DNA of 64,000 nucleotides, taken from positions 15,428 to 79,427 of the forward strand of contig JAGCOW010000096.1 in assembly GCA_017642535.1 (NCBI GenBank), in the 5' to 3' direction. Position numbers and translations under genes: made by a program. The notes under the pieces were generated by a model. It saw only the letters and a program-made list of their open reading frames with translations. It did no database searches and was not told the origin of the DNA. The first letter of the stretch is position 1; every line of letters begins with the position of its first letter. Positions 944-50,435 of this stretch are shown here, piece by piece. This DNA is from Bacteroidales bacterium (GTDB lineage: Bacteria > Bacteroidota > Bacteroidia > Bacteroidales > UBA1715).

Positions 944-1786
944 TTAATATTCCCACAAATCGTGTTCGAAGTTGAAAATGAATGTTTTAATTCTTTCTGC
1001 TTCGTACAATTGTTCGATACCGAATTTGTAAGAGTTTACTTCACGGTTATTGTACACGTTTGTTTCACGTGAGATGAAGCTACTGAAATAACGTCTTTGG
1101 AACAAATCATAGAATGATTTTTGGTCACCATCGCTATTTGGATTGAATGCTTCATTTCTTGCCAAGATAGGTTGAGCAGCTGGGAAATAAATCTTATAAG
1201 GCAAAGATTTACGAATTTCACCATCTTTTTCAAACTCACGCAAAGCAGTAATCCACATAATACGAGGATCCATCACAGAACGTTGTTTGTCGAATACCCA
1301 TTCCTCTTTCAAAATCAAGAATTTCACAGAACTTGGTTGCATAGTGTTTTCGATAGCTTTTGCACTTTCAGTACCATCTTCATTTTCGATGTAGATTGTA
1401 TCGATACTTGCACCCAATTTTGTCTTGAAATCATCAAATGTGATAGGAACTGCACCGTCACTCATTGGATCGTATGCAAACAAATAACCTTTTTCGATAG
1501 CATCGATTGTCAATGCCGTCAAACTATAACGTGAACCAATTTTTCCAGTCTCATTGTTTGGGAAATACAATGGGTGGTTCATTTTTTCACGTAGTGGCAA
1601 TGTTCTCTCAATTTGCTTAGACCACATTACGTCAGCGTAACGAATCTGTTGCATAGGAACAGGTTTTCTGTCGTTCATATGAGGTTTGTCATACGGACTG
1701 TCAGGATATTCACTCGCTTGAGCGAATAATGCTGAAGAAAACGCTACAGCAATAATAAATAATCCTAATTTTTTCATAACATTCAA
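944..1786 (-). CDS. gldN: T9SS/gliding motility protein GldN (PorN)
   Basis: 280 aa with a signal peptide (ALFAQA). It is the last gene of a gldK-L-M-N ordered operon, and its periplasmic-protein composition fits the GldN family. Confidence 0.8.
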   Translation of the reverse strand: MNVMKKLGLFIIAVAFSSALFAQASEYPDSPYDKPHMNDRKPVPMQQIRYADVMWSKQIERTLPLREKMNHPLYFPNNETGKIGSRYSLTALTIDAIEKGYLFAYDPMSDGAVPITFDDFKTKLGASIDTIYIENEDGTESAKAIENTMQPSSVKFLILKEEWVFDKQRSVMDPRIMWITALREFEKDGEIRKSLPYKIYFPAAQPILARNEAFNPNSDGDQKSFYDLFQRRYFSSFISRETNVYNNREVNSYKFGIEQLYEAERIKTFIFNFEHDLWEY

Positions 1787-1795
1787 TTTTAAGTT

Positions 1796-3469
1796 CTATT
1801 TAACGACAAATTTCAATACTCCTAGACTACGAGGCTTGCCATCAGGTCCGACTGCTTTGATATCCTCAAAATACACTTTTGAACCTTTAGAAACCTTACT
1901 AAAAATATTTTGTTTTACTTGTTGATTAATTCTATTACTCTTAACCGTTTCCGACAAGAAATAAGCGCCAACTTGAGCACTGACGGTGAATGACGTTACT
2001 TTGAATGACAAGTCGAAGTCGAAATCCTTCATCTTTGCATCAACTGTCTGAGCAGCTTGCAATCTTGCCTTGTCAATATCACCACCACTCATACCTAACA
2101 CTTCAGGAACAGGGTCAGGTACTCTCTTGATACGGAATTCCACACTACCCATATTTTGTTTCTTACCGTTAATGTCGGCAACAACGGAGATATTACATTT
2201 TCCAGCTTGTTTTACACGTACCGTATAACCGCCACCTGCATTTTTAGTAATAGAACCCTTATCACCAGGAGTCAAACTTGCAGAAATCTTATCTGCAGGA
2301 ACACCAGGAACAGAAATATCTACAGGGTTGTCAGGACCGATATAGAATACATTCATCTTAGTAGGAGACACAACCAAACTTGGTTTTGCAACTTGGTATT
2401 CTCCCGTAATAGTATAACTCAATGTATCTGATGAATTTGGTTTTGGCAACTTGATTACCGCATTATATTTTTGGGCACCAATACCACCACCCGTTACTTC
2501 GTACATTGGAAGACCACTTGCTGGGTCAATAGGCAACTTTCTACCATTTACATATACATCCAAAGCTTGCGTCGTATCGAATGCAGCCAAGAATATATGA
2601 GAAGAATACTTGTTACCTTGCATAATATAGGTACTTGGAGCTAAAATCACAGGTTCCAACTTATTAAACTTGAACGAAGTTGCATCCAACTGACCATACA
2701 TTAAATTCAACAAGTCACCTTCTACGTTACGTACGGCAGATTGCCATTGAGTAAGCACGGTGATAACACCCATCAAAGGCAAATGTTCAAATTGAGAACT
2801 TGCCCAAGGAATGATACCTGCTTCGTGACCACCACCAACAACATCGTCGGTACATAAAGCAGCCTTCACGTTGCTTGCCATTATAGAAGTAGAGTCAGAA
2901 CCATTCATAGCAGCAATGTCCAAAACCCACGAACGGAAACTATTAATAGATGCTTTCAATTTAGCACCACCGCAATTGTCACTTTGACCTTGGTCGTTAC
3001 CAACCATGATTTGAGCAGCAATATCCAAGTTATCCTTCGACTGACATTGTTCCTCCAATGACAACGTATCTATCTTATCGCCATTTTCTACTGCAACATA
3101 CAATCTTGTACTACCAGTTTCTGGACGAGTAAAACAAGTGCTTCTATCAATCTTATCCGCATAAAAAATGATAGTATCTTTATAATACTGCATTTCAGCA
3201 ACCAAACTATCAGCTTTTTGTTTCAACACCAATGACAAATCGTGTACTTTCTGCACTTTTTGTGGATTTGCCATATATGCTTTTTCAATAGCATCGTACG
3301 CAATTTGGTTCTTACTGATAAAGTTTTCGTTGGTAACGTTCAAAGAGTTATTGATTTTGATGAATGAATCAAGCACATCCTTCGAAACGTTCAACGCCAT
3401 CAAAGCAGTATAGAAAAGGTACATCATACCAATCATCTTCTGTCTAGGCGTTTCCTTTCCGTGTCCCAT
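1796..3469 (-). CDS. gldM: T9SS/gliding motility protein GldM (PorM)
   Basis: 557 aa. The N-terminus GKETPRQKMIGMMYLFYTALMALNVSKDVL is the hallmark GldM N-terminal transmembrane helix. It lies between gldL and gldN. Confidence 0.9.
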   Translation of the reverse strand: MGHGKETPRQKMIGMMYLFYTALMALNVSKDVLDSFIKINNSLNVTNENFISKNQIAYDAIEKAYMANPQKVQKVHDLSLVLKQKADSLVAEMQYYKDTIIFYADKIDRSTCFTRPETGSTRLYVAVENGDKIDTLSLEEQCQSKDNLDIAAQIMVGNDQGQSDNCGGAKLKASINSFRSWVLDIAAMNGSDSTSIMASNVKAALCTDDVVGGGHEAGIIPWASSQFEHLPLMGVITVLTQWQSAVRNVEGDLLNLMYGQLDATSFKFNKLEPVILAPSTYIMQGNKYSSHIFLAAFDTTQALDVYVNGRKLPIDPASGLPMYEVTGGGIGAQKYNAVIKLPKPNSSDTLSYTITGEYQVAKPSLVVSPTKMNVFYIGPDNPVDISVPGVPADKISASLTPGDKGSITKNAGGGYTVRVKQAGKCNISVVADINGKKQNMGSVEFRIKRVPDPVPEVLGMSGGDIDKARLQAAQTVDAKMKDFDFDLSFKVTSFTVSAQVGAYFLSETVKSNRINQQVKQNIFSKVSKGSKVYFEDIKAVGPDGKPRSLGVLKFVVK

Positions 3470-3512
3470 TATCTTAGTCTTTTAAATTTTTCTATACTTA
3501 ATTGAACAAATC

Positions 3513-4526
3513 TTATTTAATGCTCATAGCATTCAACATATTGCCATAAACAGTATTCAATGCTGACAAGTTCTGGCTCAACTTAGAAATTTCTGCCTTA
3601 TACTGAGCAACATCGTTTGCTGTAGATTTCAAATCAGACATGATAGAGTTGATACCTGAAGTAATTTCTTCGGTAGCAGTCAAGTTCTTATTTGAATTTT
3701 GTAATTGCATTTCATATACAGCATTCAATGCAGACAAATTCTTTGTCAAAGCTTCTTGTTGTTCTGCTTGAGCTTTTGTACTGTCTCCGATAGAAGAGAA
3801 GTTCGTGTTCAAACCTTCCAACAATTGTTGATAGCTTTGACCAGAAGTAGCAATGATATCAGCAGTTTTCTCAGCCGATGCAGAAATCAATTGTGATGAT
3901 TTGCTACCTGATTCAGCAATTGAATTTGCAGTTTGTTTTGCAGATTCAGCAATTGAATCAAATGCACCAGACATTGATGATACTGAATTGTTTGCATTAT
4001 TAATGTTTTCAACATATGAATTTGTTGCAACAGCAGCATTTGCTATATCAGACATACTAGAAACGTTGTTGTTCAATGCCTCCAAGTTGTTGCCTAAACG
4101 AACAAACATATCTTCGCCAAGTTTGCCTTTTTCCAACAATTCATCGAATTTTTCCAAAGCAGAACCACCTTCTTTTCCACCTGGTCCGCCAACACCACCT
4201 TCTATTTTACCAGAAAGTTTGTCTTTCAAGAATGTTGTCAAAGGAGTTGTATCTTGAACATCTTGAATACCTTCACCTTCTGGAGTTGGAATCAATTCAG
4301 GATATACCAATGTCCAGTCTATTTCAGCATGTACTGGTTCGAAAGCTGAGAAGAAGAAGATAACTGCTTCTGTCAACAAACCAACAACCAACATAGGTCC
4401 AGCACCCGGATAGTGTTGAATTTTAAACAATGCACCAACCATTACGACAGATGCTCCCCATCCATAAACTTTCGCCATAAACTTTTTCCAGCCGTCTGTT
4501 TCGACTAGTTCTGAAATACTCATCAT
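3513..4526 (-). CDS. gldL: T9SS/gliding motility motor protein GldL (PorL)
   Basis: 337 aa. Two N-terminal transmembrane helices (KVYGWGASVVMVGALFKIQHYPG..., TEAVIFFFSAFEP) are followed by a Ser/Ala/Asn-rich cytoplasmic tail, which is typical of GldL. Confidence 0.9.
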   Translation of the reverse strand: MMSISELVETDGWKKFMAKVYGWGASVVMVGALFKIQHYPGAGPMLVVGLLTEAVIFFFSAFEPVHAEIDWTLVYPELIPTPEGEGIQDVQDTTPLTTFLKDKLSGKIEGGVGGPGGKEGGSALEKFDELLEKGKLGEDMFVRLGNNLEALNNNVSSMSDIANAAVATNSYVENINNANNSVSSMSGAFDSIAESAKQTANSIAESGSKSSQLISASAEKTADIIATSGQSYQQLLEGLNTNFSSIGDSTKAQAEQQEALTKNLSALNAVYEMQLQNSNKNLTATEEITSGINSIMSDLKSTANDVAQYKAEISKLSQNLSALNTVYGNMLNAMSIK

Positions 4527-4577
4527 AACCTTTAAGAATTTTAATGTGTGTAATTTTTATTTTTTCTGTTTATCCTA

Positions 4578-5984
4578 TTAATATACTTGTGAATCACCTA
4601 CGCCATCAGCACCATATGCACGACCAAGATATGTTTGTACACATCTGAAACCGATATAACTTTTTGCTGAATCTTGATATTCGTAAGTTCTTGAGCTACA
4701 TTGCATATAGTAAGCAATATCCTTCCACGATCCACCACGAACAACTTTTCTCTTCATTACGATTGGATCGTCGTCCAATGCGCTATAGTAGTTGTCAGTG
4801 TTAACATCACCAGTGAAACTATATGCACTTTCATCGAATGCTGTTTGTGTCCACTCAGCCACGTTACCAGCCATATCATACAAACCCCATTCGTTTGGTT
4901 CATAGTGACCTACGACAACTGTTTGGATACCACCATCATCGGTGTAGTTACCACGCAATGGTTTAAAGTTAGCGATGAAACATCCTAAGTAGTTTCTTGT
5001 ATAGTTACCACCCCAAGGATATGGAGATGATTCCAAACCACCTCTTGCAGCATATTCCCATTCTGTTTCAGATGGCAAACGATAATCGTTAACTATTACT
5101 TTCTTTACACTACGCAAATATCCGTTCTTCAATTGAGTTCTCCATACACCGAAAGCAACTGCTTGTTTCCAAGAAACACCTACAACTGGATAATGATCAT
5201 ATGCAGGATGCCAGAAATACATAGCAGACATTGGGTCGTTATACGAATAAGTATAATCGCTAACCCAACACAATGTGTCTGGATAAATATTGATTTCTTC
5301 TTTTACAATATAAGAAGATCTATCTTTTATAGCTTGTCTTGTTCCATCAGCACGAAGCACGTCGCCTTCATATTTGCCCGTTTTGTAATTGTATGCACGA
5401 TTTTCCTTTCCATTTACTTTCTTCTTTTCAGCAGCTTGCTTGAAATCCATCCAGTAAAATACGAAATTCAAACGACGAACATCCAATTCGTGTTTCTTGT
5501 AGAAACGTTCATCACCTTGCAAGAAGAACGACAACAAAGCTTCACGATTTTCTGCCTCATTCCAGTCAATTGGTTTTGTCCAGTCAATGTACTGCTCATC
5601 ATCATCCAAATCTTCACCGAATTCATTTACAGTAACGAACAAATCTTCCTTACCTGCATCTTCCTTCAATGTAACGTATGCCAATGAATCGCGAACCCAA
5701 TCCACGAATTGACGATACTCATTGTTGGTGATTTCCGTCTCATCCATCCAGAATGCCTGAACAGACACCGTACGGTTTTGAGCTGTATTAGCCCATGCTA
5801 CATCTTGATCACTTGGTCCTACATTCAAACTTCCCTGTGGAATAAACAACATTCCGAATGGAACTTCATTACTCCAAGCTGGTCTTGTCTGTGTACCTGA
5901 CAACTCTCCACTTTGATAACTAGATGAACAACTTGCCATCAAAGCGATAATCGAACTAAAGAACAATAACTTTTTCATATGCAT
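4578..5984 (-). CDS. gldK: T9SS ring lipoprotein GldK (PorK), SUMF1/FGE-sulfatase fold
   Basis: 468 aa. It has a lipobox (LMASCSS) and the motifs FWMDETEITNNEY, YPVVGVSW, YRLPSETEWEYAARGG, AGNVAEW and GFRCV. Confidence 0.9.
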   Translation of the reverse strand: MHMKKLLFFSSIIALMASCSSSYQSGELSGTQTRPAWSNEVPFGMLFIPQGSLNVGPSDQDVAWANTAQNRTVSVQAFWMDETEITNNEYRQFVDWVRDSLAYVTLKEDAGKEDLFVTVNEFGEDLDDDEQYIDWTKPIDWNEAENREALLSFFLQGDERFYKKHELDVRRLNFVFYWMDFKQAAEKKKVNGKENRAYNYKTGKYEGDVLRADGTRQAIKDRSSYIVKEEINIYPDTLCWVSDYTYSYNDPMSAMYFWHPAYDHYPVVGVSWKQAVAFGVWRTQLKNGYLRSVKKVIVNDYRLPSETEWEYAARGGLESSPYPWGGNYTRNYLGCFIANFKPLRGNYTDDGGIQTVVVGHYEPNEWGLYDMAGNVAEWTQTAFDESAYSFTGDVNTDNYYSALDDDPIVMKRKVVRGGSWKDIAYYMQCSSRTYEYQDSAKSYIGFRCVQTYLGRAYGADGVGDSQVY

Positions 5985-26189: not shown

Positions 26190-26218
26190 TTTTTTCGTCA
26201 GCGGCGGAAGTAAAAAAT

Positions 26219-26246
26219 CCAACCTCTGCCCCGATATGGCACACCT
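26219..26246 (+). promoter_or_regulatory. Conserved 28-nt cassette-head element, copy 1
   Basis: The sequence is CCAACCTCTGCCCCGATATGGCACACCT. It ends 30 nt before the ATG at 26277 and aligns without gaps to the four other copies. Confidence 0.8.
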
Positions 26247-26276
26247 ACATTGTTTATTTGTCGAAAAAATAAAACA

Positions 26277-26965: not shown

Positions 26966-27697
26966 ATGTCTAATATATATTTGTCGCATATAGTTAACAC
27001 CCATACACCAAGAAAGGACGACAAATATCCGTTCAACATCCCAGCCATAAAGCGTTTGAATACGTTTGTATTTACCTCGAGTGTGACATATTTCATTGGC
27101 GAGAATGGAACTGGAAAATCAACATTGTTGGAAGCAATTGCCGTAAAAATGGGAATGAACGCAGAGGGAGGAGGACTGAATTTTAATTTCAGAACCAAAG
27201 AAACTCATTCAAAATTGTACGAAGAATTACGTTTTACGAGAACAAGTTATCGGTTGTCTGATAATTTTTTCTATCGTGCCGAAAGTTTTTATAATGCAAT
27301 CTCGTATCTCGATTCTCTTTGGTCTGATGGAAATCCTTTTTCTTCATATGGAGGTGAAAACCTTCACGAATTCAGCCATGGTGAAGGTATGGTCCGTTTT
27401 TTTGAAAATCGCTTGAAACAAGGTTTTTTCATTTTTGACGAACCAGAAGCAGCGTTGTCGTATCAGAACCAACTGAGATTTTTAGTTTGGTTGCATAGAG
27501 CGGTAGAGGCAGGCAGTCAAATTATTATTGGTACACATTCGCCTGTTATTCTTGCGTATCCCGATGCCAAGATTTATCTTTTGGACGAAATAGGTTACCA
27601 CGAAACGACCTACGAAGACAGCTATATTTACAATGACATGCGTTCGTTTGTCAACAATGTTTCGTTAATTCAGAAAGAATTGGGACTGACAAAATAA
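26966..27697 (+). CDS. Small ABC-type AAA ATPase (COG3910-like predicted ATPase)
   Basis: 243 aa. It has Walker A GENGTGKST, an SHGE signature-like motif, Walker B FIFDEPE and an H-loop GTHSP. Confidence 0.8.
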   Translation: MSNIYLSHIVNTHTPRKDDKYPFNIPAIKRLNTFVFTSSVTYFIGENGTGKSTLLEAIAVKMGMNAEGGGLNFNFRTKETHSKLYEELRFTRTSYRLSDNFFYRAESFYNAISYLDSLWSDGNPFSSYGGENLHEFSHGEGMVRFFENRLKQGFFIFDEPEAALSYQNQLRFLVWLHRAVEAGSQIIIGTHSPVILAYPDAKIYLLDEIGYHETTYEDSYIYNDMRSFVNNVSLIQKELGLTK

Positions 27698-27711
27698 AAA
27701 GTCACATTTTT

Positions 27712-27739
27712 CAAACCTCTGCCTTGATTTGGCATAGGT
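27712..27739 (+). promoter_or_regulatory. Conserved 28-nt cassette-head element, copy 2
   Basis: The sequence is CAAACCTCTGCCTTGATTTGGCATAGGT. It is followed 6 nt later by a perfect -7 box, TATGTTTG (27746-27753). Confidence 0.8.
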
Positions 27740-27798
27740 TGAGAATATGTTTGCGAAGTTTTTAATTTAAAAGTTGTGCCCGACACATATTAGGGATT

Positions 27799-28011
27799 AT
27801 GGATATGAACGATTATTATTTTTACGTTGCCCCAGACGAAGATGGTATGGGATGGGAATTTACGATTAGAGAGTTAATTGATATGGAATTCAAATCCAAT
27901 CCTGATAATTTTCCCGACAAAACCGCAAAAACAGAATTCTTAAAAAAGTTGATTGCCGATGTTGAGGAGTGTATCAAAAAAGTGGAAAACGATAGTGAAA
28001 TCAATAACTAA
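27799..28011 (+). CDS. Hypothetical small acidic protein (70 aa)
   Basis: The ORF starts 45 nt after the -7 box of element copy 2. I recognised no family. Confidence 0.5.
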   Translation: MDMNDYYFYVAPDEDGMGWEFTIRELIDMEFKSNPDNFPDKTAKTEFLKKLIADVEECIKKVENDSEINN

Positions 28012-28063
28012 ACGGAGATGCCGAAAGCCGTAAGTGGAGGCAAAAATTAAAAATATTAATAGT

Positions 28064-28201
28064 ATGTATCAATTAAATTTTCCGAACGGAAACGTTCAAA
28101 CGTACAGTTCACAAGGTGAATTGTTGAATGCGGCACGACTTTTAGGTGGCGAAGCAAAATTTATTAATGGTAAAATCTATGCTTTCGTGCCGAAAAAGTA
28201 G
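28064..28201 (+). CDS. Hypothetical mini-protein (45 aa, MYQLNFPNGNVQTYSSQGELLNAARLLGGEAKFINGKIYAFVPKK)
   Basis: Read by hand because it falls below the track's size cut-off. The ATG is at 28064 and the stop at 28199-28201, immediately followed by a hairpin terminator. Confidence 0.35.
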   Translation: MYQLNFPNGNVQTYSSQGELLNAARLLGGEAKFINGKIYAFVPKK

Positions 28202-28209
28202 GATTGTGG

Positions 28210-28241
28210 CGGCAAGATGATAAATTCGTCTTGCCGTTTTC
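28210..28241 (+). terminator. Intrinsic terminator closing the two-mini-ORF cassette
   Basis: The sequence is CGGCAAGA-tgataaattcg-TCTTGCCG followed by TTTT. It overlaps the track's extended start (28217) of the next ORF, which argues for the later ATG. Confidence 0.65.
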
Positions 28242-28267
28242 TGAAAAAAACAATATTTTTGAAAACA

Positions 28268-29245
28268 ATGAGTATGGATTTGTTATCAATTTGGAGAAAC
28301 GGAATGTTTGGCGTCATTGTTGGCGACGCTCTTGGATGTCCTGTAGAATTTGAGGAACGGGAAATACGCGACAACGACCCAGTTGAGGATATGCGAGAAT
28401 ATGGCTCTTTCAATCTGCCTCGTGGTAGTTGGACCGACGACAGCAGTATGGCTTTGGCGGAGATTGACAGTATCATTGAATGCAACGGGATTGATTTAAA
28501 ACACATAATGAACTGTTTCTCGCATTGGTATCACTCAGGCGAATATACACCTTTTGGAGATGCATTTGACATTGGCAATACTGTTCAACGTGCAATATCA
28601 AGATTTTCAAGGGAGGGAAATCCTTATACGTGTGGCGGTGTTAGCGACTATGACAACGGTAACGGTTCACTGATGCGTATTATGCCCATTTGCCTTTATT
28701 GCTATCAGAAGGGACTAAAAGGAGAAAAATGTGATGAAGCCATTCAACTTATTCATGCTGTATCAGGATTGACTCACAATCATTTGCGTTCTAAAATTGC
28801 TTGTGGACTTTATTATTTTATTGTCTGCGAAATACTTGACGGGGTAGGCACTCTGACAGATAGGCTACAAACAGGACTTGACAAAGGATTTGCCTACTAC
28901 GAGTTCAAAGATGGAACCGTTGAGGAGGAATTGCAATATTTCAATCGTATCTACAATGTAAAAGAATTTGCATTGACTCCCAAAGACGAAATTCAAAGCG
29001 GCGGTTACGTAATTGACTCTATCGAGGCTACGATTTGGTGCCTTGCCAATAGTTCCCAATACGATGAATGTACTTTGATGGCTGTTAATTTGGGCGACGA
29101 CACCGACACGACAGCAGCAATTGCAGGAGGATTGGCAGGACTTTATTACGGCACCGACGGCATGCCACAAGAATGGCTCAACTGCATTCAACGAAAAGAA
29201 TGGATCGAGGGGCTTTGTGAAAAGGTGGTTACAATTTTGTTGTAA
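28268..29245 (+). CDS. ADP-ribosylglycohydrolase (ARH/DraG family)
   Basis: The motifs are GVIVGDALGCPVEFE, SWTDDSSMAL and GDDTDTTAAIAGGLAGLYYG. A -7 box TATTTTTG (28254-28261) sits 6 nt before the ATG at 28268, implying a leaderless or short-leader mRNA. Confidence 0.9.
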   Translation: MSMDLLSIWRNGMFGVIVGDALGCPVEFEEREIRDNDPVEDMREYGSFNLPRGSWTDDSSMALAEIDSIIECNGIDLKHIMNCFSHWYHSGEYTPFGDAFDIGNTVQRAISRFSREGNPYTCGGVSDYDNGNGSLMRIMPICLYCYQKGLKGEKCDEAIQLIHAVSGLTHNHLRSKIACGLYYFIVCEILDGVGTLTDRLQTGLDKGFAYYEFKDGTVEEELQYFNRIYNVKEFALTPKDEIQSGGYVIDSIEATIWCLANSSQYDECTLMAVNLGDDTDTTAAIAGGLAGLYYGTDGMPQEWLNCIQRKEWIEGLCEKVVTILL

Positions 29246-29314
29246 TAAAGTGCTTTTGCATTGCTTTTATCTTGAAGAAATAATAAATTTGGTCAATAAT
29301 AAACAATTAATACA

Positions 29315-30192
29315 ATGAACTTGACATCCACCCCCAAAAAGAAGAATAAGGAAACGGTTAATCAACAACTGAATAAACTATTCAGCAAGTGGAAAGAAAA
29401 ACGTCATTATGACGAGTCTGTTTTTGTTAGTGATGGTTTGGTGTACAAGAATGCCCCTTGGAAAATGGAGAAAGAAGAAGAACTTGCTGGAACGAAAACT
29501 GATGTCAAAATTGACAAATTATGGAAAGAATCACCTTTGCGGATAGTATTTCTTCTTAAAGATACTCCGGATACTTGGGGAGACGATATTCGTCAATGGA
29601 TGATTTTAGATACTAAAGAAAGTACACAGTGTCGCAACTTGTCAGGTGGTCGAGTTGGTCGAACAGGATTCCTTCCCAACATTGCAAAAATATTATTTGG
29701 AATACGTTATATTAAAGAGTTGAAATACGATAATTTTGAGGATTTCAAAAAAAATATACAGAACGGATAGTGAAATCTTGGAACAAACTACCGTTTGCTT
29801 TTGTTGAAACAAAAAAAATTGCAGGAAACCCAAATGTGTCAATCAAAGAAATACAAGAGTTTTTGAAAAATGATGGTGAATTCCTTATGCAAGAGTTAGA
29901 TTACTTACAACCCAATGTGATAATTTGTACTTGTGACCCTCAATTTGATTTTATCACAACAAAATATCTTGCTAATGAGGTGATTGATGAAAGTGATAAA
30001 AAAGTATATAAGTATCCTTATGATCCGTATTTCGATTGTTGTTTATGGTACTATCACGAAAGGAATATTGCGGTTGTTAAATCGTATCATCCAACTAATC
30101 GAGGAAAGATCCAGTGGACTATTTTCGAACGTGTAGTAAGTCCGTTTAGGAAATTGTTGAAAGAGAATCCTCAATTCTTTGAAAAATTGTAA
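29315..30192 (+). pseudogene. Single gene split by a frameshift at an A8 tract (track ORFs 29315-29770 and 29770-30192); possible UDG-superfamily-like fold
   Basis: Frame 1 stops at 29768-29770. The second frame is open from 29740, so the two ORFs overlap across A8 (29747-29754). A 1-nt change would fuse them into a protein of roughly 290 aa. RIVFLLKDTP, NVIICTCD and SYHPTNRG are laid out like a UDG-like fold (weak evidence). Confidence 0.55.
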
Positions 30193-30330
30193 ATATAAAA
30201 TCTTATTTCAAGATTGACTAAGATAAAAATACGACACAAAGGGAATCCAAAGTTTTCGTCCACCCTGTTTTTCTCATAGCCTAATGAAAACAACTGAAAT
30301 AGAGTTTCAAAAAAAATGAAATAATAATAA

Positions 30331-30358
30331 TCTGCATCTGCCTTGATTTGACACACCT
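30331..30358 (+). promoter_or_regulatory. Conserved 28-nt cassette-head element, copy 3
   Basis: The sequence is TCTGCATCTGCCTTGATTTGACACACCT. It is followed by a TTTCTTTG near-consensus -7 box, and the ATG at 30388 lies 29 nt after the element. Confidence 0.75.
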
Positions 30359-30387
30359 ACTTATTTTCTTTGCAGAAAAAAATAGCT

Positions 30388-32353: not shown

Positions 32354-32415
32354 TGCCTATAAATGTCACATTTTTTTCTATAACCTTATAATCCAAACTT
32401 AATTTCTTCATTTTT

Positions 32416-32443
32416 CCATCCTCTGCCCTGATATGGCACACCT
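32416..32443 (+). promoter_or_regulatory. Conserved 28-nt cassette-head element, copy 4 (no adjacent ORF)
   Basis: The sequence is CCATCCTCTGCCCTGATATGGCACACCT. It is followed by TTCTTTTG, but only 2- to 12-codon ORFs occur before 32833. Confidence 0.75.
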
Positions 32444-32832
32444 TTGATTTTCTTTTGTAAAAAAAAATGGTATAAATATGCGACGAGATACTCAGTTTGT
32501 ACACGGATTTTTATAACTTGTTTCAATTAAGATTTAATTTTTTTAAATAAAGAGTTAATTAGATACTAACCTTGGCAACCGCATCAAAATATAACTAATT
32601 GACAATCATTCATGACCTTTTTATTTTCGGTACATAATGAAAGTCTGTAAGACTCAGAATCAGTTGTTTAACTATTTTTTTGTATGGTTATCGTAATTTC
32701 GTGTTTAGAAATTTCTATTTTTGTATAAATACTGAAAAAAATGTACCGACAGTATTTTTATAAATAAATTTTTAGTAAAAAAAATGTTTGTTTTACGCAC
32801 GCGATAGTGATGTGCTAGAAAAGGAGGCAAAA

Positions 32833-34467: not shown

Positions 34468-34488
34468 GATTCAAAATCTCTTATTTTT

Positions 34489-34516
34489 CCAACCACTGCC
34501 CTGATATGGCATACCT
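34489..34516 (+). promoter_or_regulatory. Conserved 28-nt cassette-head element, copy 5
   Basis: The sequence is CCAACCACTGCCCTGATATGGCATACCT. It is followed 6 nt later by a perfect -7 box, TATGTTTG (34523-34530), and the ATG is at 34558. Confidence 0.8.
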
Positions 34517-34557
34517 CACGTTTATGTTTGCGCCAGAAAACATAAATAATAAACAAA

Positions 34558-35594: not shown

Positions 35595-36161
35595 ATGAAC
35601 GAGAATAACGTTTTACTGCTTGCCGTTGGCGACGGGGCAATCAACATAGTGGAACAAAACATGGAAAAACTTTCGAAACATTTTTCCGTGGCTACAATCC
35701 GCAAAGATGTTTATTTTGATTCCGCTGATGCTCAATGGCAATCAATGCTGAAGTTGGTTGTTCCCCAAAACGTGAAATATGTATGTTTGCTGAATTGTCT
35801 TGGTGGCGACGATGACTTGACAGTACTATCAATCATGAACGCTTGCGTTTCAAGAGATATTTTGGTGATTGGTGCATTGGTGTTCCCATTTTCGTTTGAA
35901 GGAAGTTCACGTTTTCAGTTGGCTGACAGTAAATTGTCGATTATGGAAAAAGGGATTCCTCAATTTGATTCAGTTGAATTTGACGAAGCATGTACAAAGT
36001 ACAACAGTTGTCATTGTATAATAAAATTTTTCAACGACGATATGTTTATACATTTTCCGAATGATTTGTTTTATAAGGCATTGCGGCACTTTAACGAGGA
36101 AATCTGCGATGGAATCATTGCTCACATGAAAGAACTTTCTTACATAATTCCATTCGATTGA
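35595..36161 (+). CDS. Degenerate FtsZ/tubulin N-terminal-domain-like protein
   Basis: 188 aa, starting 5 nt after the mreB-like stop codon. LLLAVGDGAINIV aligns with the VIGVGGGGGNAV T1 loop, and CLGGDDDLT replaces the GGGTGTG T4 loop. ILVIGALVFPFSFEGSSRFQLAD aligns with ILTVAVVTKPFNFEGKKRMAFAE, and HFPNDLF aligns with IPNDKLL. The protein ends at the N/C domain boundary. Confidence 0.55.
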   Translation: MNENNVLLLAVGDGAINIVEQNMEKLSKHFSVATIRKDVYFDSADAQWQSMLKLVVPQNVKYVCLLNCLGGDDDLTVLSIMNACVSRDILVIGALVFPFSFEGSSRFQLADSKLSIMEKGIPQFDSVEFDEACTKYNSCHCIIKFFNDDMFIHFPNDLFYKALRHFNEEICDGIIAHMKELSYIIPFD

Positions 36162-46502: not shown

Positions 46503-47834
46503 TTATGTAAAAATCAATTCAATATCTGGATCTTTTCCTTTTTTTATTTTGTCGCGATAAAAACCTATAATTAAATCAATATTTTTCCAACCCCATTGTG
46601 TATAGTACCAATACGTGATCCCTTTTATAGTTGTTTGTTTGAAGTTATGATCAAAATTATTTATTTTTTCTTTCTCATTCTCATCATCACATACAATTAC
46701 AACATTCTGTTTCAATAATTTTTTACTTTCGATTTCTATATTTTTCTCTATATCAATTTTATGATTCTTAAACGTCCAATCTTGTGTCTTATCAAATGAT
46801 TTCACATGTACAAGAAAATCATTCCATTTTTTATTGATTGTATTTGTATCTAACCTTTCTTCTTTTATACAATATTCCAATATAGCCTCAACAAGAGCAC
46901 CTTTCCCAGGATATGTATTACCATTGAATTTATAATGGGTCTTATCTTTTGCTTTACCTAATTTCTCTATAGCAGTTGATACAGATGTAGTGTCATAGTC
47001 TAGGGTATCATCGTCCTTAAGCGCAGATAACGATAAAGTAATCAGTTGTTCATTATTCGTCCAAAAGTCAACAAGTAGTTTTCGAAGTTCATCGTTCATA
47101 GCCATAATATTATTTTGTTGTGAGTAATTTATACTTAATGCTTTAATGTATTCTTTGATAATAAAATGTTTTCTCGGTTGTATAGATTCTTCATTGAGCA
47201 ACGGAGAGAGAATCTCATCTAATATGTCTTGGTAATTGATTTGAATAAAAGATTTGCATTCACACTCAGGTTCAAGTAAATCTTTTGAAGGACGTTGAGT
47301 GAGAAAAACGAAAATACAATTTTCAGCATTATATTTTTCCGTATAATATTCATAATATCTTTTTGTCTGACCAGTGTGCTCTTTTGAATTCACCTTATTC
47401 TCAACAATCACATACAATGGTTTTTCACTATTCCTATACTTAATAGTAATTAATATATCTGACCTGCCTTTTTTCTCCTTCGTTACAGCAGAATCCTCGA
47501 GTTTTGCTTCTACATGTTCAATGAAAAAGGAAGTTGTTAGCAAACGCTTTCTTACTTTATCAGTGAAACGAGTTTTTTTGTCCTTGTATTGTCCATCTCT
47601 TTTCAGTAATAAAAGCAACAAACTTTTTATAGAGATTTCACATAATTCTTGATCTGCAAAAATCCATTTTAGAAAATTAGAATGATAGTTTTCTTTTCTA
47701 TCAACCCGAAGGATATCTAAAAAAGAAAGTTCATTGTAATATTCGTTGAGCTTTTGTACCGTTGAAGATGAGTGGTACTTTCTCAACAACTCAAAAACCT
47801 CATCGTCAGACAATTCAACTTGTTCTTCTGCCAT
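46503..47834 (-). CDS. PD-(D/E)XK nuclease superfamily protein
   Basis: 443 aa. The motifs are an N-terminal NYHSNFLKWIF and a core GRSDILI...YVIVENKVNSKEHTGQTKRYYEY (D...ExK pattern). The gene is visibly more AT-rich than its neighbours. Confidence 0.65.
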   Translation of the reverse strand: MAEEQVELSDDEVFELLRKYHSSSTVQKLNEYYNELSFLDILRVDRKENYHSNFLKWIFADQELCEISIKSLLLLLLKRDGQYKDKKTRFTDKVRKRLLTTSFFIEHVEAKLEDSAVTKEKKGRSDILITIKYRNSEKPLYVIVENKVNSKEHTGQTKRYYEYYTEKYNAENCIFVFLTQRPSKDLLEPECECKSFIQINYQDILDEILSPLLNEESIQPRKHFIIKEYIKALSINYSQQNNIMAMNDELRKLLVDFWTNNEQLITLSLSALKDDDTLDYDTTSVSTAIEKLGKAKDKTHYKFNGNTYPGKGALVEAILEYCIKEERLDTNTINKKWNDFLVHVKSFDKTQDWTFKNHKIDIEKNIEIESKKLLKQNVVIVCDDENEKEKINNFDHNFKQTTIKGITYWYYTQWGWKNIDLIIGFYRDKIKKGKDPDIELIFT

Positions 47835-47999
47835 TGTTACAAATCACAAACGGACCTCTTTTTTACATTTTTCTCTCCAACTCTCCAAACCTTGCCGAAG
47901 TCCATATAACAAAATCCGAGAATTTGAATTGTGTAAAGTTACGAAATTTTTCGAAACTTGTTTTTGCAAAAAGCATTTTTTCCTACTAGCAATCGATCT

Positions 48000-48797
48000 T
48001 TAAATATGCACCTCCGTCTGTACTATAAACCTCTTAGGATCAAGCAAGAGACCATACTGAAACGGCATACAGCATTTTGAAAAAAGCACATACATCAAAT
48101 AACAGATGCGGTGGTCGTTGAACGAAGGCTGACAAAGTTCGTCAATGTTCCAACTCCATTCGTTCAAAGGGTCTTTGTCCATGTCGGGACGTGTGTTCCA
48201 AGCTGTTTTGAGTTTTTCATAGGCAAAATCAACGAGTTCATTTCCCAATGTGTTTTCTTCATCAACATAGAAATCATAGTAGATATACGTTTCAATGTCA
48301 GAGTTTATATAGTTCGTCTTACCGCTTGCACACAGGAATTTTATATCACGCTCTACTTCATCATGTTTCTTTCGTGCTTCATCCATCAGTTTTGCAAGTG
48401 TATCGTTAAGTACCAACAACTTACGCACGTTTTCCTCTGTCCAGACAAAGGTTTCGTTCATTTTGGTCTGGCGAAGCTGTAATTTTTCCCGTATTGTTTT
48501 AAGATTTTTTGCTCTGCTTTTGGCATTGCTACTTGATCTACGCGGCCAACCCGTAGTGGAATGACTTTCTTCCCTATCGATGTAATATTCGTTGTAATTA
48601 TTGCACTTAATACTGATGCCGAACGAATCGTAAATATCCTTAAGATGGTCACGGAATGTTCGTTCCGCATACGGTTTGCAGTCGCAATTGAGCGAACATT
48701 TATCCCATTTACCCTGAATTTCCTTAAACGTAATTGGTTCATAATCAGAGATTACCTCCATGAGCCACTGCAATCGTTGAATTTGAACTGATGACAT
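48000..48797 (-). CDS. Putative winged-HTH (HTH_11/YafY-like N-terminus) regulator
   Basis: 265 aa. The N-terminal pattern is QRLQWLMEVISDYEPITFKEIQ...ERTFRDHLKDIYDSFGISI. The C-terminal region of about 170 aa is unassigned. Confidence 0.4.
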   Translation of the reverse strand: MSSVQIQRLQWLMEVISDYEPITFKEIQGKWDKCSLNCDCKPYAERTFRDHLKDIYDSFGISIKCNNYNEYYIDREESHSTTGWPRRSSSNAKSRAKNLKTIREKLQLRQTKMNETFVWTEENVRKLLVLNDTLAKLMDEARKKHDEVERDIKFLCASGKTNYINSDIETYIYYDFYVDEENTLGNELVDFAYEKLKTAWNTRPDMDKDPLNEWSWNIDELCQPSFNDHRICYLMYVLFSKCCMPFQYGLLLDPKRFIVQTEVHI

Positions 48798-48855
48798 TTT
48801 CTTAGAATTTTAAAGTTTATTTTTCTTATTACAATGCAAATGTATATAATAGATG

Positions 48856-48870
48856 TGCGAAATCTTCGCA
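48856..48870. promoter_or_regulatory. Dyad operator-like site TGCGAAATCTTCGCA (site 2)
   Basis: It lies 59-73 nt upstream of the ATG at 48797. In gene orientation it is followed 15 nt later by TTTGCATTGTAA, where TACATTTG forms a perfect -7 box. Confidence 0.65.
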
Positions 48871-48878
48871 CAGTAAAT

Positions 48879-50435
48879 TTATTTTTTTACTGCATCCTTC
48901 AGTTTTTCCCAAACTTTCACCATTGCCAAGGTATCGAGTTTACAATATTCAAGCAACGCTTTTCGAGTCGCGTCCTGCTCTTCGGGCGGCATATCCTTTA
49001 TTTTCGGGAAAATATTCATCGCGTCGCCACCATTTTGCACCCGTTCGTCCAAATTGTGATAATTCAGACTCGGATCATCTGGGAACAAGGCAGGTAACAC
49101 GCTTTTAATTGAAAATGAACCGCCCATTTCTTTTACATAATAATTGCCTTTCTGAAACGGTATCAACAAATCAACAATATGCTCTTTTATGTTTAACAAA
49201 TGTTCCGACAAATCGGGAAACAACTCGGCCAGTTCCTTAATTCTCGAACATTCAAAAGTTTTATTATATGCAACAGTACAGACATTTTTAGGAATATCCT
49301 GACATAAGCGTTCGGCAATGTCGCGAAGTGGATTTTTACCAGACTCAGCAAGAAAATCCGTGTGTTTCAGTTCTCCGCCTTCGTGTTCAATATAGTACAG
49401 CGAATATTGAAACGGAATTTGCTGATATGGTCTTGTACCCACAATGTCGGGCACCGCCTGTTGCATCGTTTCGAAATCAAGAAAATAAAGCGGATAAGAC
49501 AATGTTTTCAAAAAATCGGAAATTCCGTCTTTATTTATAAAAGTTTTGTCATTCAACGCTCCTTCCATCTGCATAATATGTATCGGATTCTCAATACATT
49601 TTGACTTTTGCAAATCTTCGTACGAAATCAGTCCTTTTCTATAATATGCTATTTTTTTCGAAAAATGCACTCTGTATAAATCAAATACTGACGGATTTGG
49701 CACGTGTTTCGCACAATAGCCCCAAAACTCGCAACCGCAGCAGTTTTCGTCAATATCTTTTACCGGTTCTTCTTCATTTGCAACTATTTTTAATGCAGCA
49801 GGCAAAAGAGTGGGAACTTTTAGATATTCGTTTTCCATTCGTTCCGCAACATCTTCAACAACAAACAATTTGGCAACATCAAGCGTTCCATCAAAGACAT
49901 AAGAATTGTCAATGTGAACGATGTATGTTCCGGTAACCTTCACGCCACATTTTTCGAGAACATATTTTTGATATGCAATGTCCGTCAAATGATAATCTTT
50001 TACTTCAGTGGAACTTTTCACCTCATAAATGGCATATCCGCCTTTTTCTTTTCTAAGAATATCTACGGCACAATAACAGCCGTGGTAACTGAATGACGCC
50101 TCACAGATATTGTCGCAACCTTCATCCAAGCATTTCTGAGTATCCTCGAGCATTTTTTTGAGATTGAGCGAACCGTCATCATTCTTTGCCGTTACCTCTA
50201 CAAAATCGCCAAACAACTGCATGGCTAGGTCACCAACTTCGTTCCCTGTTTCCATCCGTGCCATCGATGCATCATCAACTACGGCAAGTTCCGATTTATA
50301 TACCCGTAACCATAACAATTTTTCGCACGAGCAAAACGCCACGTATTTTGACTTTGATAATCCCTTGTGTGCCATATTTTCCCTCAATTTATAGTTTTCA
50401 AAGATAGAAAAGAATGTTGATTTATCCTTTTGCAT
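48879..50435 (-). CDS. DUF2779 domain protein (RecB/Cas4-like PD-(D/E)XK fold)
   Basis: The N-terminus GLSKSKYVAFCSCEKLLWL is typical of DUF2779. The ATG at 50435 (MQKDKS) or the downstream MAHKG is preferred over the TTG at 50459, which lies inside the shared promoter block. Confidence 0.7.
   Translation of the reverse strand: MQKDKSTFFSIFENYKLRENMAHKGLSKSKYVAFCSCEKLLWLRVYKSELAVVDDASMARMETGNEVGDLAMQLFGDFVEVTAKNDDGSLNLKKMLEDTQKCLDEGCDNICEASFSYHGCYCAVDILRKEKGGYAIYEVKSSTEVKDYHLTDIAYQKYVLEKCGVKVTGTYIVHIDNSYVFDGTLDVAKLFVVEDVAERMENEYLKVPTLLPAALKIVANEEEPVKDIDENCCGCEFWGYCAKHVPNPSVFDLYRVHFSKKIAYYRKGLISYEDLQKSKCIENPIHIMQMEGALNDKTFINKDGISDFLKTLSYPLYFLDFETMQQAVPDIVGTRPYQQIPFQYSLYYIEHEGGELKHTDFLAESGKNPLRDIAERLCQDIPKNVCTVAYNKTFECSRIKELAELFPDLSEHLLNIKEHIVDLLIPFQKGNYYVKEMGGSFSIKSVLPALFPDDPSLNYHNLDERVQNGGDAMNIFPKIKDMPPEEQDATRKALLEYCKLDTLAMVKVWEKLKDAVKK

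Follow-up and report, generated by a model that had tools for sequence, protein, structure and literature searches.

An orphan ADP-ribosylglycohydrolase gene in an exchangeable cassette island of a Bacteroidales bacterium

Why should a bacterium carry an enzyme that removes ADP-ribose where no enzyme that adds it is encoded nearby? The question is raised by a gene in a stretch of 64,000 nucleotides (here called the window) from a Bacteroidales bacterium (assembly GCA_017642535.1, contig JAGCOW010000096.1, positions 15,428 to 79,427). The gene encodes an ADP-ribosylglycohydrolase (ARH) and lies in a low-GC island of a rumen Bacteroidales chromosome, and the cargo of that island differs between strains. 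A first-pass annotation, made from the DNA letters alone, had proposed that this ARH, embedded among FtsZ- and MreB-like genes, might be an immunity or reversal enzyme of the Tri1 type. The reading that we favour, and to which we give about an even chance, is that the ARH is an orphan eraser of foreign ADP-ribosylation that works by catalysis alone, and that a mobile cassette carries it within an island of the defence type.

Is the gene, then, what it appears to be? The open reading frame (ORF) closes at 29245. Its first in-frame ATG, at 28217, falls inside a strong hairpin and its homologues begin MDLL, so that a start at 28268 (or 28274) is preferred. The product matches Pfam PF03747 (ADP_ribosyl_GH) over essentially the full length of the model (residues 12-302, model positions 2-287 of 287) at 238 bits (E 2.5e-70), where the gathering cut-off is 26.2 bits. 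All motifs are present: GDALG at residues 19-23 (as GDALGCPVEFE), WTDDSS at 55-60, FDIGNT at 100-105, NGNGSLMR at 130-137, and GDDTDT at 276-281. These supply the complete metal and catalytic set (the glutamate in GDALGxPVEFE, T-D-D, the aspartate of FDIG, and D-x-D-T). When 26 homologues (53-83% identity) are compared, nearly every motif residue is invariant or conserved in at least 90% of them, and the metal and catalytic residues align to those of Tri1 and Lmo0067, two relatives that are considered below. The confident call of an ARH with intact GDALG and DDTDT motifs is thus borne out, and the sequence describes a genuine, apparently active ADP-ribose-removing enzyme.

To which branch of its family does the enzyme belong? 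Among NCBIfam models the best match is Tri1 (NF041672), at 188.4 bits, and DraG (TIGR02662) is matched in two stretches at 141.2 bits (E 3.7e-41); the equivalog cut-offs for these models are 490 and 337 bits, respectively. The alignment to the Tri1 model opens only at model position 73, which is protein residue 12. The ARH domain begins about 11 residues past the start codon, and the N-terminal extension of Tri1 is absent. In Tri1, that extension plugs the active site of Tre1, a toxin that modifies FtsZ at Arg174 by ADP-ribosylation, and the ARH domain undoes Tre1 activity (PMC8120803). Membership in the Tri1 type, as first suggested, must therefore be given up: the score is far under the cut-off, the toxin-plugging extension is missing, and the ORFs scanned in the window show no Tre1 context and no context of a type VI secretion system (T6SS).

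A ranking against the PDB tells a similar story. Lmo0067 of Listeria monocytogenes (8ZA7) scores 225 bits, ahead of Tri1 (6DRE, 141 bits), a Thermus ARH (119 bits), DraG (95 bits) and ARH3 (38 bits); Lmo0067 aligns over its full length, with 38% identity over 298 aligned positions. By locus-tag order, lmo0067 adjoins lmo0066, as an immunity gene would, and we take lmo0066 to carry an ADP-ribosyltransferase domain. The lmo0066 gene encodes an EsaD-like toxin of a type VII secretion system, and sits in a hypervariable hotspot (PMC5417603). A literature search found no paper on the function of Lmo0067 or 8ZA7. The two rankings, together with the position of lmo0067 next to lmo0066, assign the ARH by sequence to a DraG-like branch whose best-known bacterial relatives are toxin-linked. 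By the same comparisons, it is the orthologue of neither Tri1 nor DraG.

A second question is whether the gene belongs to the core of its host. Identical ARH copies are found on the rumen metagenome contigs L001-L004, together with the same island. The chromosomal site of that island is bounded by OTCase and an Rce1-like protease at one end and by ispG at the other. At the same site in L091 and L092, where the flanks are 90-92% identical, a shorter island lacks the ARH. At the same site in L102, the ARH cassette (window 27708-29272, L102 6432-7997) is 98.5% identical in DNA, compared with about 92% for the flanks, and four other window genes are missing; this difference in identity implies a recent horizontal exchange of the cassette. 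L005 has the ARH in yet another arrangement at this site. The ARH is, in short, accessory and horizontally exchanged.

These observations bear directly on the view that the ARH is a housekeeping, DraG-like regulator of an endogenous ADP-ribosylation switch. Such a view might draw on the E value of the match to the DraG model, and on the fact that ARH genes outnumber transferases in many bacteria (PMC8120803). It is, however, largely refuted by presence and absence at one locus. The first-pass annotation had held that a housekeeping clade conserved at this locus would speak against its own proposal; what is found is an L091 site with no ARH between flanks that are 92% identical. Further, the DraG score falls below the DraG cut-off, no draT or nif context is present, and the surrounding DNA is low in GC and exchanged as cassettes. 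We therefore regard a housekeeping role as very improbable.

The distribution of the family argues in the same direction. It comprises more than 7,500 homologous sequence clusters, and this clade is very abundant in rumen bacteria. Among the best 80 genome matches, 79 are Bacillota or unclassified rumen metagenome-assembled genomes (MAGs) at 50-60% identity, the Bacillota being Lachnospiraceae, Butyrivibrio, other Clostridia and related groups. The sole Bacteroidota match among the 80 is L010, a Salinivirgaceae MAG, at 80% identity. Relatives drawn mostly from Bacillota and the rumen count further against a housekeeping gene, and point to transfer of the ARH between phyla within the rumen. Three viral contigs in IMG/VR also carry an ARH, 43-50% identical. 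A phage origin of the gene was considered and is unsupported; copies in reference phages reach only about 34% identity and occur in jumbo phages, and plasmid copies do not exceed 48%.

Is there a transferase with which the ARH might be paired? No ADP-ribosyltransferase (ART) or T6SS family was matched among the ORFs of the island or among those scanned at 41.7-55.3 kb. The ARH of the window is an orphan, without a cognate transferase nearby. The same was asked of its homologues, where 132 immediate neighbours from about 70 genome loci were scanned. Here, the 25 commonest families include none of the ART type. The recurrent Pfam families are Macro (11 neighbours), vWA (6), PHP-type CpsB/CapC phosphatase (5) and HTH (5), with two metallophosphatase families at 4 and 3. 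Since no transferase lies beside the ARH, or recurrently beside its homologues, the idea of an orphan reversal enzyme fits. Conflict systems that are centred on ARG domains and lack an ART have been predicted to strip ADP-ribose added by extrinsic enzymes (PMC9503650, section 3.8).

What, then, does accompany the homologues? Clustering of their loci by BLAST recovers a Macro-HTH protein at 21 of 70, a small vWA protein at 15 of 70, and a second ARH at 9 of 77. In rumen Firmicutes, the gene ahead of the ARH commonly encodes a protein of some 360 amino acids that opens with a Macro domain and ends in an HTH-like region (for example, L007 6524-9005 and L008 6806-8963), and SIMPL-domain or vWA genes often come after the ARH. 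A Macro-HTH protein beside an ARH places two different ADP-ribose erasers side by side. Some homologues (P0039, P0046, P0102, P0103, P0085) are fusion proteins whose other part is a KaiC/DnaB_C/AAA_25-type ATPase, a PHP CpsB/CapC phosphatase or a 4Fe-4S domain, and a stand-alone KaiC/RecA-like ATPase is encoded in the ARH-bearing island of L010 (15160-16005). In Firmicutes, 3 of 70 loci place the homologue in a co-directional array together with a relaxase, and some homologues share such an array with Nmad3, HIRAN and RNase_T genes.

Such company can be read in another way. The ARH might degrade a soluble molecule derived from ADP-ribose, either an immune signal or a toxic metabolite, and so regulate a defence pathway or, on mobile DNA, serve as counter-defence. 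The Macro, Nudix and phosphatase genes near homologues process ADP-ribose derivatives; the long co-directional arrays of Firmicutes hold typical mobile-element cargo; and the viral copies would suit counter-defence. The published survey argues, however, that ARG domains favour macromolecular conjugates (PMC9503650), Pfam and PADLOC scans of the island reveal no TIR, SIR2 or cyclase gene, and the window island carries no mobility genes. A soluble substrate is, in our view, quite unlikely.

The orphan eraser that we favour would work as follows. A foreign ADP-ribosyltransferase, perhaps a phage takeover enzyme or a contact-delivered toxin resembling Tre1, would modify the macromolecules of the cell itself, and the ARH would hydrolyse mono-ADP-ribose off them. 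Homology to Tri1 and DraG makes a linkage to arginine, with proteins as the targets, the most probable. Protection would come from catalysis alone, with no binding of the toxin. The gene is carried as a single-gene cargo cassette, which begins with the repeat and its predicted promoter, continues with p70, p45 and the terminator, and closes with the predicted promoter of the ARH and the ARH itself.

The rationale for this reading has several parts. The toxin-linked relatives Lmo0067 and Tri1 outscore DraG. The gene is accessory, and keeps defence-type company (ATPase-Toprim/HEC-04 and AAA_21 proteins in the window; McrBC, GmrSD, PDDEXK_4 and WYL in sister islands). No transferase lies nearby, which matches the published prediction for systems without an ART (PMC9503650). 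Finally, a second, unrelated ARH clade occurs in the same island family, which speaks for selection on ARH activity itself.

Other points weigh against it. No PADLOC model matches the ARH. Enzymes with the ARH fold also cleave serine-linked ADP-ribose, O-acetyl-ADP-ribose and, as in DarG3, probably DNA adducts. The relaxase arrays of Firmicutes are places where ARH activity would serve the mobile element against the defences of its host. Last, the cargo around the ARH is mostly nucleic-acid-targeting, and a DNA or RNA substrate fits it at least as well as does a protein.

This last point leads to the reading in which the ARH acts on ADP-ribosylated nucleic acid, whether by a DarG3-like reversal of adducts of the DarT or CmdT type, or within a defence directed at DNA modification and involving a possible glycosylase. 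DarG3 is the ARH-fold antitoxin of DarHTG systems, in which it is encoded with the toxin DarT and a helicase (PMC13069673). The island cargo is dominated by ATPase-Toprim, PDDEXK_4, McrBC, GmrSD and RNase_T, and the gene directly downstream of the ARH, in the window and in L006, has a weak signal of uracil-DNA glycosylase (UDG). Its best PDB match is a family-4 UDG at E 0.027, below significance, and it may possibly belong to the UDG superfamily. Against this reading, neither DarT nor a helicase is found in the island or among the 25 commonest families of homologue neighbours; the downstream gene is frameshifted in the window and missing in L102 and L005, and so is dispensable; and the sequence affinity of the ARH is to Tri1 and DraG, hydrolases specific for arginine in proteins. 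A nucleic-acid substrate seems, on balance, improbable.

The downstream gene, of a 270-aa family, was also considered as an obligate partner of the ARH, and the same facts of frameshift and absence rule it out. The split is identical in the four metagenome contigs L001-L004, and one intact protein of 270 amino acids is found in L006; since the split recurs in four contigs, the frameshift is real. The AAA_21 ATPase upstream is ruled out as a partner as well, since it is missing in L102 and stands in L091 beside an FtsZ-like gene with no ARH.

The immediate surroundings of the ARH fit its description as cargo with its own expression signals. The two small ORFs upstream, p70 and p45, are differently distributed. 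The first has no Pfam family match. The second precedes an ARH of the same clade (clade A) in the window, L102, L010 and L006, and in L091 precedes PDDEXK_4 instead. Between p45 and the ARH lies a terminator-like hairpin, and counterpart hairpins of differing sequence stand 3' of p45 in L091, L010, L006 and L102. A box of the TAnnTTTG type, TATTTTTG, ends 9 nucleotides before the ATG of the ARH. The hairpin upstream and this box suggest that the ARH is probably its own transcription unit, which is consistent with the near-leaderless promoter that had been proposed for it; a scan for sigma-70 promoters is uninformative for Bacteroidota, and the promoter is predicted from sequence.

The island that holds this unit extends from 26.2 to 36.2 kb (about 10 kb). 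Its GC content is 0.29-0.38, compared with 0.41-0.44 in the flanks, and 14 of its 14 ORFs lie on the plus strand. At 26226, 27719, 30338, 32423 and 34496, and nowhere else in the 64 kb, stands a repeat of some 50 bp, of which 0.05 copies are expected by chance; its consensus is ATTTTTCCAACCTCTGCCYTGATWTGGCAYACCT, and a TAnnTTTG-like box comes after it. The repeat core is an invariant TGCC-N7-GGCA palindrome with 4-bp arms and no covariation. A role as RNA was considered and rejected, since Rfam gives no match and this palindrome is the sole structure; lacking covariation and an Rfam match, the repeat looks instead like a shared promoter with an operator.

The five repeats delimit five units. 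The first holds a protein called X and the AAA_21 ATPase; the second, p70, p45, the ARH and the split 270-aa gene; the third, ORFs of 100, 398 and 97 amino acids; the fourth, the 508-aa ATPase-Toprim protein; and the fifth, the MreB-like and FtsZ-like genes. The 398-aa ORF has a sub-threshold UDG match, and is 62% identical to a gene of 478 amino acids in L093. When the window is compared with L102, the four indel breakpoints (27708, 30330, 32443 and 34475) all fall at repeats, which implies that cassettes are gained and lost there. Sister islands carry McrBC, GmrSD, PDDEXK_4, WYL and RNase_T, and the island family as a whole shows at least ten interchangeable cargo types besides the ARH. This turnover resembles that of integrons or of the rAID arrays discussed below, without a visible recombinase: none appears within the island or beside it in the window, L091 or L102. 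Coordinates are collected in Table 1.

Table 1. Positions in the window of the ARH gene, the island repeats and the other island features
Feature	Position	Strand	Basis or remark
Island repeat copy 1, left end of island	26218..26269	+	
X, 194 aa	26277..26861	+	Co-occurs with FtsZ-like gene in islands
AAA_21/AAA_15 ATPase, 243 aa, AriA/PtuA/GajA-like P-loop	26966..27697	+	
Island repeat copy 2, heads ARH-containing unit	27696..27755	+	TGCC-N7-GGCA palindrome and TAnnTTTG box
p70, 70-aa ORF, first gene of ARH unit	27799..28011	+	Accompanies ARH in L001, L005, L102
p45, 45-aa small ORF	28065..28202	+	tblastn and blastn; 45-aa gene called there in L006, L091
Terminator-like hairpin with U-run, between p45 and ARH	~28208..28243	+	-21.9 kcal/mol, z -5.4
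ADP-ribosylglycohydrolase (ARH), stand-alone domain, 325 aa	28268..29245	+	Pfam PF03747, intact catalytic site motifs
270-aa-family gene, split into two ORFs (29315-29770, 151 aa; 29770-30192, 140 aa)	29315..30192	+	Both halves match intact L006 protein
Island repeat copy 3	30330..30381	+	Breakpoint relative to L102
Three ORFs: 100 aa, 398 aa, 97 aa	30388..32353	+	
Island repeat copy 4	32415..32466	+	Breakpoint relative to L102
ATPase-Toprim (OLD-like) candidate defence protein, 508 aa	32788..34314	+	PADLOC ATPase-Toprim_I-B E 8e-39, HEC-04 E 7.5e-29; Pfam AAA_21
Island repeat copy 5	34473..34539	+	Breakpoint relative to L102
Divergent MreB-like actin-fold protein, 343 aa	34558..35589	+	Pfam MreB_Mbl E 7e-68; 5 nt upstream of FtsZ-like gene
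FtsZ GTPase-domain-fold protein, 188 aa, right end of island	35595..36161	+	AlphaFold2 (AF2) and Foldseek

What, then, of the cytoskeletal look-alikes in the same island? One is the 188-aa protein at the right end of the island. Its AF2 model (pLDDT 70.6, pTM 0.74) finds FtsZ as 12 of the 13 best PDB matches in Foldseek (E 2.7e-5, TM about 0.6). By sequence alone the relation to FtsZ is marginal; there is no Pfam Tubulin match, and where FtsZ has its GGGTGTG signature, the family of this protein has GGDDDLT throughout. The family numbers 53 clusters, and those with a source name are all Bacteroidales. The modelled structure makes a convincing case for an FtsZ fold with a degenerate nucleotide-binding loop. 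The MreB-like protein next to it is a solid match to the MreB family in Pfam, but scores 235 bits with the NCBIfam MreB model, under the cut-off of 293. The same pairing of MreB-like and FtsZ-like genes is found in L103, L106 and L107, amid restriction-type cargo. PADLOC has no match for either protein or for the small ORFs of the island. A literature search found no defence model or paper that covers such a pair, and no precedent for a set of restriction-type defence genes that includes degenerate proteins resembling FtsZ and MreB.

The protein X is more elusive. Its family is rare (11 clusters, and 12 representatives in a HMMER scan of 1.84 billion proteins, no FtsZ among them), and its AF2 model reaches a pLDDT of only 47.5; the top Foldseek matches are FtsZ, but at E values of 0.015 or more. 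A guess made by eye, that X is the C-terminal domain of FtsZ, is unproven, with an empty PDB profile search and a negative hhalign comparison with E. coli FtsZ (for which the query sequence was approximate). X-like stretches are repeated in two very long proteins, P0189 (1972 aa) and P0193 (2712 aa). X and the 188-aa family occur together in every long variant of two island types, where the variable cargo stands between them, whichever of the two comes first. In Type I islands, X opens the series, the cargo follows, and the FtsZ-like gene closes it; in Type II islands, the order is WYL, RNase_T, p398-like, FtsZ-like, p113, McrBC or GmrSD, DUF4143, X. Besides the window, X and an FtsZ-fold gene are found in the islands of L090, L091, L093, L096, L098, L110 and L113.

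The description of the ARH as embedded among FtsZ- and MreB-like genes stands insofar as all share one island. None of them, however, adjoins the ARH; X lies 1.4 kb upstream, and the MreB-like and FtsZ-like pair 5.3 kb downstream. Across the island family, of which about 13 variants were seen, an ARH occurs in three independent ones (the window lineage, L010 and L094/L095), and these represent two unrelated clades. In L010, a clear FtsZ GTPase-domain gene (PDB E 1e-19) is followed by one small ORF and then by an ARH 80% identical to that of the window. In L094 (7762-8661), and also in L095, the ARH is of the other clade, with 299 aa, 22% identity and intact motifs; it stands first in a three-gene island, before PDDEXK_4 and an FtsZ-like gene. 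About 5.7 kb upstream of the L094 ARH, on the opposite strand, a DUF3990 gene with a faint ART-PolyVal match is paired with DUF3791. The association thus proves real at the level of the island family, with two ARH clades recruited; it does not extend to most FtsZ-like islands, and FtsZ-like genes stand without an ARH in L090, L091, L093, L096, L098, L104, L106, L107, L110 and L113.

Might the ARH and these look-alikes form one system? Here, the degenerate FtsZ-fold protein, and perhaps X and the MreB-like protein, would serve as decoy or sensor, and the ARH would clean real or decoy FtsZ. That Tre1 targets FtsZ and that an ARH domain reverses its action (PMC8120803) gives this proposal its appeal, as do the genuine FtsZ-fold genes and the close arrangement in L010; the independent recruitment of two ARH clades, that of L094 being non-homologous, is suggestive of coupling. 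Yet the roughly 70 Firmicutes ARH loci include no FtsZ-like gene, just as an ARH is missing from most FtsZ-like islands. Within the window, the genes lie 5 kb apart in different repeat-delimited units, with a predicted terminator and promoter of the ARH's own. With so many other interchangeable cargo types in the island, co-residence is expected without coupling. We judge coupling unlikely. A fuller version takes the island family for a so far undescribed carrier of cassettes in rumen Bacteroidales, one that has no recombinase and whose recurrent genes are disabled versions of the host cytoskeleton: the FtsZ-fold protein without its GTP loop, X as a possible partner resembling the C-terminal part of FtsZ, and often the MreB-like protein. 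These would be baits or decoys for phage or toxin factors that attack the divisome, and ARHs of two unrelated clades would be repeatedly recruited to strip ADP-ribose of the Tre1 type from FtsZ. If true, this would be immunity through target mimicry plus enzymatic reversal, and we hold it to be quite improbable.

Elsewhere in the window, a second low-GC variable patch (46503-50435, minus strand) encodes a PDDEXK_4 nuclease of 443 amino acids, a 265-aa ORF, and a DUF2779/Cas4-like nuclease of 518 amino acids; it is flanked by BspA-type leucine-rich repeat proteins. At 944-5984, also on the minus strand, four co-directional genes resemble, by eye only, the gldK-N cluster of gliding motility and the type IX secretion system, which would suit a Bacteroidota host.

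Orphan erasers of ADP-ribose are predicted to serve bacteria generally against the ADP-ribosyltransferases of invaders, and, besides Tri1 homologues, almost none has been tested. The present clade, a compact cassette that moves between phyla and strains, is a tractable candidate for immunity by catalysis alone. The ARH itself is, of course, of a known enzyme type; the more unusual features are the architecture of the island and its degenerate FtsZ-like and MreB-like genes. The island may indeed matter more than the ARH, with an integron-like turnover at a shared promoter/operator repeat and no visible recombinase.

How does the ARH compare with systems already described? With DraG (PDB 2WOC, 3G9D) it shares fold and catalytic residues, and the chemistry of an arginine-specific mono-ADP-ribosylhydrolase would be the default expectation; it differs in being an accessory gene, with no draT or nitrogenase context, rather than a conserved regulator. 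With Tri1, the T6SS immunity protein of Serratia proteamaculans, it has the ARH fold in common, together with the motifs for metal binding and catalysis, and the mode proposed here, the enzymatic reversal of foreign ADP-ribosylation, would by analogy be that of the Tri1 ARH domain. Unlike Tri1, it has no adjoining Tre1-like transferase or T6SS gene, and its setting is a cassette island in a Bacteroidales host. Lmo0067 is the closest solved relative, and likewise a single-domain ARH of equal size, but apparently has an adjoining toxin gene where the window ARH has none. DarG3 offers an ARH-type fold that serves the reversal of ADP-ribosylation in an anti-phage context; its partners DarT and helicase are absent here from the Pfam matches of the island and from the 25 commonest homologue-neighbour families.

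A further comparison is to the ARG-centric systems of Iyer, Burroughs, Aravind et al. These too have an ARH without a linked transferase and neighbourhoods that vary rapidly, and the role proposed for them is the same, the removal of ADP-ribose added by invaders. The Firmicutes homologues share their coupling with phosphatase, Macro, Nudix and HTH genes, and the sister island of L010 encodes a WYL regulator. The ARG-centric systems were described, however, in actinobacteria, planctomycetes and proteobacteria, with Nudix/WYL regulators and phosphatases in the operon, whereas the ARH of the window is a lone gene without Nudix, WYL or phosphatase partners.

For the island, the nearest comparison is to the rAID-1 arrays of gut Bacteroidales, which are recombinase-associated arrays of orphan immunity genes, co-directional and low in GC, with integron-like intergenic repeats (Ross et al., bioRxiv 10.1101/471110). 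Shared features are the Bacteroidales host, two or more co-directional genes, a GC content of at most 41%, repetitive intergenic sequences, and a turnover of cassettes between strains. The differences lie at the 5' end, which in the window is OTCase and an Rce1-like protease and not the XerD-like tyrosine recombinase that defines rAID-1, and in the cargo, which in the window family, where identifiable, looks mostly anti-phage (ATPase-Toprim, McrBC, GmrSD, PDDEXK_4) and less like T6SS immunity genes.

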